Source: Escherichia coli
GTDB taxonomy: Bacteria; Pseudomonadota; Gammaproteobacteria; Enterobacterales; Enterobacteriaceae
Strand: one strand, 5' to 3'
Assembly: GCF_044647545.1 (NCBI RefSeq)
Contig: NZ_CP172818.1
DNA: 64,000 nt
Shown: positions 2,743-32,775 of the stretch, piece after piece
How the letters are laid out: every line of letters starts with the position of its first letter
Position numbering within the stretch: the stretch's first letter is position 1
The notes under the pieces: generated by a model
What the model saw: only the letters and a program-made list of their open reading frames with translations
Database searches by the model: none
What the model was told of the DNA's origin: nothing
Made by a program: the position numbers and the translations under genes

Positions 2743-3690
2743 TTAGAGTTTATCGATATCAATTGCCTGAATAGCCCTTGCAATATCAGGGGAATTATTC
2801 AACATCCGAACATGCTGAAATAATTCTGTTGCTTCATCGTATTCTTTACGCAAATAACTCAACCACTGTTTAATCCGCGCTACGTGATATAACCCGGTAT
2901 CGCCCTGCTTTTCCAGACGGGTATATTTTTGCAGCAAAGCAACTACCTCCGGCCATGGCATTCGCGGTTCGTTATATTTTACCACCCGGCTCAGGTTGGG
3001 AATATTGAGCGCCCCGCGACCAATCATCACTGCGTCGCATCCGCTGATCGTCATGCATTGTTGCGCACTCTGCCAGTCCCAGATTTCACCGTTGGCAATC
3101 ACCGGAATATTCAGCCGCTGGCGAATCTCGCCAATCGCCTGCCAGTCAATATGCTCCGCGCGGTAACCCTGCTCTTTTGTCCGCCCATGTACTACCAGCT
3201 CCGTAGCGCCAGCCTGTTGCACCGCATCGGCGATTTCAAATTTCTTCTCACCGCTGTCCCAGCCCAGACGCACTTTTACGCTGACGGGCAAATGCGCCGG
3301 TACAGCTTCGCGCATCGCTTTTGCACCCTGATAGATGAGTTCAGGATCTTTGAGTAACGTCGCCCCACCGCCGCTACCGTTAACCGTTTTCGACGGGCAG
3401 CCGCAATTGAGATCCACGCCCCAGGAACCTAACTCGACCGCACGGGCGGCATTCTCTGCCAGCCATTGTGGGAACTGACCTAACAACTGCACGCGCACCA
3501 GCGTACCAGATGGTGTCCGGCTGGCGTTTTGTAGCTCAGGGCAAATGCGATGAAAGACTTTTACCGGCAGCAGTTGATCCACCACGCGGACAAACTCGGT
3601 GATGCACAGATCGTAGTCGTTAACTTCGGTCAGTAATTCCCGCACCAGAGAGTCAAGTACACCCTCCATCGGAGCCAGTAACACACGCAT
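2743..3690 (-). CDS. dusC: tRNA-dihydrouridine synthase C
   Basis: Track ORF 2743..3756 trimmed to [13 protein letters not shown] start, giving 315 aa; Dus family TIM-barrel signature. Confidence 0.92.
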
Positions 3691-3892
3691 ATCATCACCC
3701 GCAAAAAAATGAGGCGCTATGTTAGCGCCTATGGTCAGCGGATTAAAGGTCTGCAAAGAGGGATTGCTGCAAACTGCAATCCCTCTCTATGCTTGATGTA
3801 TGCCTGAGTTCGCTGCTCATTGCGTAATGCCCGGGAGCGAAAAAATAAGCGCTGATTTCTTAATGTGATCGGTAGCACGTTTTACGAATTAA

Positions 3893-5019
<1,127 letters not shown>

Positions 5020-5059: not shown

Positions 5060-5148
5060 CGTTGCATAATTAATGAGATTCAGATCACATATAAAGCCAT
5101 AACGGGTTCGTAAACTGTTATCCCATTACATGATTATGAGGCAACGCC

Positions 5149-32618: not shown

Positions 32619-32775
32619 TTGAGGAAATAACCTTAGTGTTTGATGAAAGTTTCAGGTTTCCACTAAAAGATAAAACCATTTAAATTCATAAAATTACATT
32701 CACAAACCGGTCATTCTCTTTGCGCGCATCAAATGTTCCAGGGCAGGAAATTTCTGCCCTGGAACACACCTTTTA

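Follow-up and report, generated by a model that had tools for sequence, protein, structure and literature searches.

The perfect inverted repeat located at positions 3757-3786 of the window (the whole stretch of 64,000 nucleotides of Escherichia coli DNA that was analysed), between the divergently transcribed genes dusC and yohJ, is most likely an evolutionary by-product rather than a regulatory element. We give a probability of about 60% to the reading that it has no function and sits in a deletion scar, with template switching having either made it perfect or kept it so. It lies within a 105-bp segment specific to Escherichia (3749-3853), which is allelic with a 6,069-bp cluster of mhb genes, and neither of the flanking promoters depends on it, since both function where it is missing, in other strains and genera. 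We infer the absence of function from this comparative evidence, to which there are counterpoints: a perfect 11-bp dyad is improbable by chance, and it is perfect in 84% of E. coli genomes. If our reading is right, even a perfect palindrome that stands out statistically and lies in a divergent promoter region can be no more than a remnant of evolution, and this one would be of little importance as a regulatory element.

Geometry of the repeat and organization of the dusC-yohJ spacer

The repeat comprises two arms of 11 nt each, AGAGGGATTGC (3757-3767) and GCAATCCCTCT (3776-3786), which exhibit 100% complementarity, form a stem with six G-C pairs and are separated by an 8-nt spacer, TGCAAACT (3768-3775). 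In the K-12 chromosome it corresponds to positions 2230452-2230481 of NC_000913.3. The preliminary description, made from the sequence alone, had given the arms as 11-12 bp; they are indeed perfect over 11 bp, and in this strain A3756 and C3787, which stand opposite each other, prevent a twelfth pair. The distances given there, about 70 bp to the dusC start codon and about 145 bp to that of yohJ, agree with the 67 bp and 143 bp that separate the repeat from the ATG of dusC (minus strand, 3690) and the ATG of yohJ (plus strand, 3929), and the remark that no U-tract follows was likewise correct: the sequences beyond the repeat, CTATGCTT on the plus strand and TTGCAGAC on the minus strand, do not form a T-run, and the terminator scan is silent at this position.

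The window contains six distinct perfect inverted repeats with arms of at least 11 nt and loops of at most 12 nt, where 100 first-order Markov simulations give 0.23 on average, and under this random model the palindrome is more than chance. As a single-stranded DNA hairpin, the E. coli sequence has a folding energy of -12.7 kcal/mol on one strand (z = -6.5) and of -11.8 kcal/mol on the other (z = -5.3). The five other perfect repeats with arms of at least 11 bp are located at 2480-2511, 32734-32766, 55876-55903, 59186-59214 and 59357-59385; those at 55876 and 59357 begin with A-runs and have a terminator-like look, and that at 2480-2511 lies within REP-like DNA, between yohP and the 3' end of dusC. 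The palindrome itself resembles REP/BIME elements in being extragenic in E. coli, but it is single-copy, has no REP similarity and is placed between divergent genes, not between convergent or co-directional ones. Membership in a repeat family was rejected, as both the 105-mer and the 34-mer around the palindrome are single-copy in E. coli chromosomes: searches with the 34-mer at BLAST sensitivity revealed no second copy in any E. coli genome, and a scan of the 64-kb window allowing up to three mismatches recovered only the palindrome itself. Five matches in a plasmid collection fall in very large records (three of 4.8-4.9 Mb, the others of 0.37 and 1.4 Mb), apparently chromosomal DNA. Viral contigs scanned for GGGATTGC-N6-10-GCAATCCC yielded 66 unrelated hairpins, none of them with the loop or the flanks of the palindrome; many are ordinary terminators, and their number is near chance by a rough estimate in which the size of the collection was assumed.

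Transcription start sites of both genes have been mapped by SMRT-Cappable-seq (PMC6131387, Supplementary Data 2), which reports a single start for b2140 (dusC), at 2230407 on the reverse strand, and a single start for b2141-b2142-b2143 (yohJ-yohK-cdd), at 2230602 on the forward strand. Alignment of NC_000913.3 2230301-2230700 to the window gives a K-12 coordinate equal to the window coordinate plus 2226695, which places these starts at 3712 and 3907; the 147 given for thrL in the table suggests 0-based numbering, in which case both starts move up by one base. They come from one study and few growth conditions. The two starts are divergent and 195 bp apart, and the leaders are short (22 nt, 3712-3691, for dusC and about 22 nt, 3907-3928, for yohJ), with the palindrome upstream of both: relative to the dusC start it spans -45 to -74 (centre -59.5), and relative to the yohJ start approximately -121 to -151. 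Neither published start falls within the palindrome, and transcription from each runs away from it, so that the palindrome is untranscribed; as it is confined to the spacer upstream of the dusC -35 element, no RNA hairpin is expected to be formed from it. A role in a leader RNA, which had been proposed initially as an alternative to a regulator site, is contradicted for the conditions studied, because the palindrome is in untranscribed DNA; the lack of compensatory changes, described below, and of any Rfam family speaks against it too. A scan of 3300-4300 against Rfam 15 at E<=10 returned chance-level hits only, none at the gathering score. The weak hits to RyhB and STnc100 correspond to a hairpin internal to yohJ (3984-4011), ATGCCTGC-N6-GCAGGCAT followed by TTTTC on the plus strand, 55-80 nt into the open reading frame, and Term-seq has reported an ORF-internal 3' end at K-12 position 2230706, i.e. 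at about 4011 of the window (PMC7815308).

The spacer map can now be corrected to three parts: a yohJK block with CRP and YieP sites, a dusC promoter situated in the terminator of an operon, and a scar between them. To call the region a divergent promoter region was justified, but the palindrome belongs to a lineage-specific 105-bp insert between the conserved promoter blocks. The dusC-proximal conserved block (3691-3748, minus strand) holds the core promoter and the 22-nt leader with its ribosome-binding site. Its -35 element is TTTAAT (3747 to 3742) and its -10 element, after a 17-bp spacer, is TAACAT (3724 to 3719), which ends 7 nt upstream of the start at about 3712; the hexamers of this promoter and of the yohJK promoter are our assignments from the sequence. 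The junction of the scar, 3748|3749, sits 1 nt upstream of the dusC -35 element. In the same block the terminator scan found, on the minus strand at 3703-3730, an intrinsic-terminator-like hairpin, AGGCGCTA-ACA-TAGCGCCT, followed by CA and T7, which overlaps the -10 element and the start of dusC and in cluster-bearing strains is found directly downstream of mhbM. The dusC core promoter is embedded in the very hairpin and T7 that end the mhb operon in those strains, with the -10 element in the loop and the 3' arm and the transcription start at the last base of the stem, and this hairpin with its T-run is kept across the Enterobacteriaceae regardless of the sequence upstream. The operon whose terminator holds the dusC promoter is frequently lost. 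Neither the dusC-proximal terminator nor any other place upstream of dusC has a 3' end in Term-seq tables (PMC7815308).

The yohJ-proximal conserved block (3846-3928, plus strand) holds the yohJK promoter with a putative -10 element TATGAT at 3896-3901, 6-7 nt before the start at 3907/3908. A CRP site in this block (3862-3882) has its centre at 3872, about 35-36 bp upstream of the yohJ start, which corresponds to neither of the classical CRP spacings of -41.5 and -61.5. This site, aaTGTGAtcggtaGCACGttt, is bound in vitro according to a Footprint-seq preprint, in which it is placed in the dusC/yohJ spacer (PMC12871828). YieP represses yohJK, and its ChIP-exo motif atTTGTaTGAcaAAT (PMC7642389) can be read from the sequence at 3891-3905, with 11 of 11 high-information positions matched and an overlap with the yohJ -10 element; binding of YieP has been reported mostly downstream of promoters (PMC11340327). 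Identification of the palindrome with the operator of YieP or with the CRP site was rejected, as both sites are inside the conserved yohJ-proximal block and not in the palindrome, and our literature search on the dusC-yohJ spacer found no regulator assigned to it beyond these two.

The 105-bp segment and the mhb cluster

A megablast search with 3600-4000 gave matches in 5,424 of the 5,426 complete E. coli genomes. In about 510 genomes the match is split into 3600-3748 and 3857-4000, and dusC and yohJ are separated by a block of 6,069 bp (e.g. in strain KKo009), while the 105-bp segment is present as one chromosomal copy in 4,920 of the 5,426. Following the gene names of the RefSeq annotation, the block codes for a LysR regulator (mhbR) and, divergently, for MhbT, gentisate 1,2-dioxygenase, an FAH-family protein, maleylacetoacetate isomerase and 3-hydroxybenzoate 6-monooxygenase; the order of this 3-hydroxybenzoate/gentisate operon, mhbR / mhbT-gtdA(mhbD)-FAH(mhbH)-maiA(mhbI)-mhbM, is that of Klebsiella mhbRTDHIM. 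Pairwise alignment with cluster-bearing E. coli places the ends of homology at 3748|3749 and 3853|3854, and detects no counterpart of the 105 bp within the cluster. The 3-hydroxybenzoate/gentisate genes at dusC-yohJ segregate in this species as a presence/absence polymorphism, with the mhb cluster carried by about 9% of the complete genomes. The palindrome belongs to the cluster-less allele; it is missing from the cluster-bearing 9% and from all other genera examined. An origin of the palindrome as a relic of an operator for MhbR, the LysR regulator, was considered and rejected: nothing similar to it was found in the mhbR-mhbT control region.

DNA similar to mhbM occurs in 612 E. coli genomes, about 100 more than the approximately 506 with the dusC-linked cluster. 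There is one extra mhbM-like match, of about 95% identity, at another chromosomal locus (e.g. NZ_AP042673.1 5554617-5555855), and 26 mhbM-like places in E. coli genomes are on plasmids; from this excess it follows that a second, diverged mhb cluster circulates in E. coli.

A scan for DusC in one genome per species provided 80 loci, to which tblastn was then applied. The mhb cluster is found in the same order between yohJ and dusC in Citrobacter sedlakii, C. amalonaticus, C. portucalensis and C. werkmanii, in Klebsiella oxytoca, K. michiganensis, K. grimontii and K. spallanzanii, in Raoultella terrigena, in two genomes of the Kluyvera group, in Pseudocitrobacter and in one divergent representative labelled E. 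coli. The locus of Salmonella diarizonae is cut, with only maiA-mhbM-dusC visible, and S. arizonae has kept mhbR alone at the locus, with the catabolic genes missing. Position and gene order are common to at least seven genera, and the identity of MhbM to the E. coli copy (88-94%) parallels that of DusC (84-92%). Citrobacter genomes without the cluster fall into two groups, each with a breakpoint of its own, and their fillers show no relation to that of Escherichia. Across genera, conservation of the spacer is limited to about 83 bp beside yohJ and about 58 bp beside dusC; the centre, i.e. the filler, occurs only in cluster-less Escherichia and was found in no outgroup. According to the most parsimonious reading of these distributions, the mhb cluster would be old at this locus and would have been lost several times independently, and the 105 bp would be a deletion scar or filler peculiar to Escherichia, produced by a deletion rather than an insertion. 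In two loci of the Kluyvera group, mhbM is separated from the hairpin that carries the terminator and the dusC promoter by about 1.5 kb of additional DNA, which looks like a gene of the opposite strand.

Variation of the palindrome in Escherichia and the origin of its arms

An exact 34-mer around the palindrome is present in 4,116 of 4,919 E. coli genomes (84%), and the remaining 803 (16%) have one mismatch. Among six variants sampled, five change an arm with no compensating change in the other (C3777T, four genomes; A3779T, one genome), and the sixth, C3787A of strain TC24, is just outside the arms. The repeat of Escherichia sp. MOD1-EC7003 extends over 12 bp, one of its pairs being a G-T mismatch. 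The filler is longer by 35 bp in E. whittamii, Escherichia sp. E1V33 and SCPM-O-B-8794, and two to four pairs of the palindrome are mismatched there; on the plus strand the dusC-proximal arm of these three lineages is AGTGAGATTGC, where E. coli has AGAGGGATTGC, and the opposite arm is unchanged GCAATCCCTCT. The differences among relatives are concentrated in one arm, where they make or break complementarity, and further mismatches are lineage-specific. Counted over nine distinct Escherichia sequences, none of the 11 pairs is changed on both sides and four of the 11 are broken in some sequence, and the covariation score of the pairs, from the same nine sequences, is no better than that of shuffles. 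The hairpin energies of the three divergent lineages are -7.8, -2.6 and -0.8 kcal/mol, against approximately -12 in E. coli, the latter two being no better than those of shuffled sequence. Divergence of the arms from the cryptic clades amounts to 9-20%, compared with about 23% in the neighbouring filler; these are small numbers, and because the divergence of the arms is somewhat below or equal to that of the filler, a weak constraint on the arms is possible. The 35-bp indel that distinguishes E. coli proper from the three divergent lineages is at 3806|3807 and has short GCA/CCA microhomology at its edges, which would be consistent with continued erosion of the scar.

As to the source of the arms, the dusC-proximal arm together with the next 5 nt (GCAATCCCTCTTTGCA), upstream of the shared block CTTTAATCC, can be aligned to the end of mhbM, GCAACCACGCTGAGCA (codons Q-P-R-stop), with 11 matches in 16 positions and an offset of 3 nt. 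In an ungapped shuffle test that allowed offsets, this similarity obtained P of about 0.003, with a design chosen post hoc, and a gapped, anchored test of whether the homology continues into mhbM gave no significant result; derivation of the proximal arm from the 3' end of mhbM is only suggested by these results. The other arm could be an inverted copy generated by a replication template switch. According to a model in the literature, template switching in E. coli preferentially turns imperfect inverted repeats into perfect ones (PMC5941160; PMC7202029), and such a process may account for the origin or the maintenance of the palindrome.

The history of the locus would then begin with an ancestor in which yohJ and dusC flanked the mhb cluster. 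On the branch that gave rise to most Escherichia the cluster would have been lost, leaving a filler of approximately 105-140 bp in its place, and the inverted repeat would have arisen in this filler, with the dusC-proximal arm perhaps originating from the last codons of mhbM. Afterwards the palindrome would have drifted, decaying in the sister lineages, and may still be perfect in E. coli proper either for lack of time or owing to template switching that restores quasi-palindromes.

The palindrome is in this respect a fresh instance of an already known kind of sequence. It resembles the quasi-palindromes and their products described by Lavi et al. 2018 (PMC5941160) and by the Lovett laboratory (PMC7202029): it is perfect, short and intergenic in K-12, the version in relatives is imperfect, with few differences that are mostly in one arm, and no function is required to explain it. 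However, many perfect inverted repeats analysed by Lavi et al. are conserved across Proteobacteria (PMC5941160), whereas the palindrome is limited to one allele of one genus and is situated in a scar.

Alternative readings of the palindrome

An operator for a dimeric or tetrameric protein, gained in E. coli after the loss of the mhb cluster, is possible but unlikely, and we regard as equally unlikely that from -59.5 it would tune dusC in a class I-like manner, the control of yohJK from about -136 being the lesser possibility; the specific proposal of a new 30-bp operator at -59.5 for some regulator appears more doubtful still; it would imply a species-specific control of the tRNA dihydrouridine-16 synthase (dusC) or of the divergent YohJK exporter. 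Like class I operators (at about -61.5), the palindrome has dyad symmetry and lies in untranscribed DNA immediately upstream of the dusC -35 element, with its centre where class I activators act; its symmetry is well beyond chance, and it is kept perfect in most E. coli genomes. Unlike them, it is not conserved with its promoter: its conservation ends with E. coli proper, it is degraded in sister lineages of Escherichia, and the cluster-bearing E. coli as well as all other genera use the same core promoters without it. Moreover, no further copies were found at BLAST sensitivity, the centres of its 11-bp arms are separated by 19 bp, an unusual distance for a simple dimer, and the CRP and YieP sites of the spacer are elsewhere. 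The preliminary description had named loss of conservation in close relatives among the outcomes that would tell against its reading, and in close relatives the palindrome is not conserved. Its judgement against a terminator holds, given that there is no U-tract and no mapped transcript; the leader RNA is contradicted, and the site for a dimeric regulator has gained no positive support. To our knowledge, the motif of no known E. coli regulator fits the palindrome. An operator of CytR was considered because CTGCAA occurs three times (at 3751, 3767 and 3774) and cdd is 1.2 kb away, with a GTTGCAT-type sequence in its promoter (5061-5067) that we take to be the CytR operator position, presumably with its flanking CRP sites; the palindrome offers only partial matches (5/6) and no adjoining CRP site, and this candidate was rejected as unsupported.

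Readings in which the palindrome acts by its secondary structure appear less credible than an operator. It is improbable that the palindrome works as a hairpin of an RNA that is scarce or made only under certain conditions, such as a long dusC leader from a predicted promoter at about 3926-3897 that would meet the terminator at 3730-3703, and just as improbable that the two together would form an attenuator or a small RNA. Such an RNA of the minus strand does fold as the palindrome hairpin followed by the terminator hairpin (z = -3.9), C3777T would keep a G-U pair on the plus strand, and on the dusC side there are a sigma-70 holoenzyme SELEX peak and a predicted promoter, TCAACA-18-CATCAT (Shimada et al., PMC3946193); however, the sole capped 5' end on record for dusC, at 3712, is on the downstream side of the palindrome, Term-seq has no 3' end at the dusC-proximal terminator, a consensus promoter scan of 3500-4100 finds no promoter-like site, and pair-breaking substitutions are several where compensatory ones are zero. 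Extrusion of a DNA cruciform, absorbing negative supercoiling between the divergent promoters, is more improbable yet. The palindrome is a perfect inverted repeat between starts 195 bp apart and has a stable single-strand hairpin, but its arms are short (11 bp, with an 8-nt spacer), the comparative evidence is against selection, and a long loop disfavours cruciform extrusion in vivo. Scarcely any credence can be given to a weak or relic terminator, e.g. of the lost mhb operon, although the stem-loop is a few dozen bp upstream of the true terminator and its proximal arm may come from the 3' end of mhbM: the palindrome shares with intrinsic terminators a stable stem-loop, but lacks their U-tract, with no T-run on either strand and no call in the scan, and is outside mapped transcripts; the terminator of the mhb operon is the separate conserved hairpin at 3730-3703, and strains that carry the cluster have no palindrome. 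The functionless repeat in a deletion scar is the reading that we prefer to all of these.

The sequence upstream of dusC is different in E. albertii, where a different terminator hairpin adjoins the ribosome-binding site. This hairpin, CCTCCGGC-TAT-GCCGGAGG, is strong, is followed by a T-rich run and stands directly before the shared ribosome-binding region GCGGGTGATGATATG.
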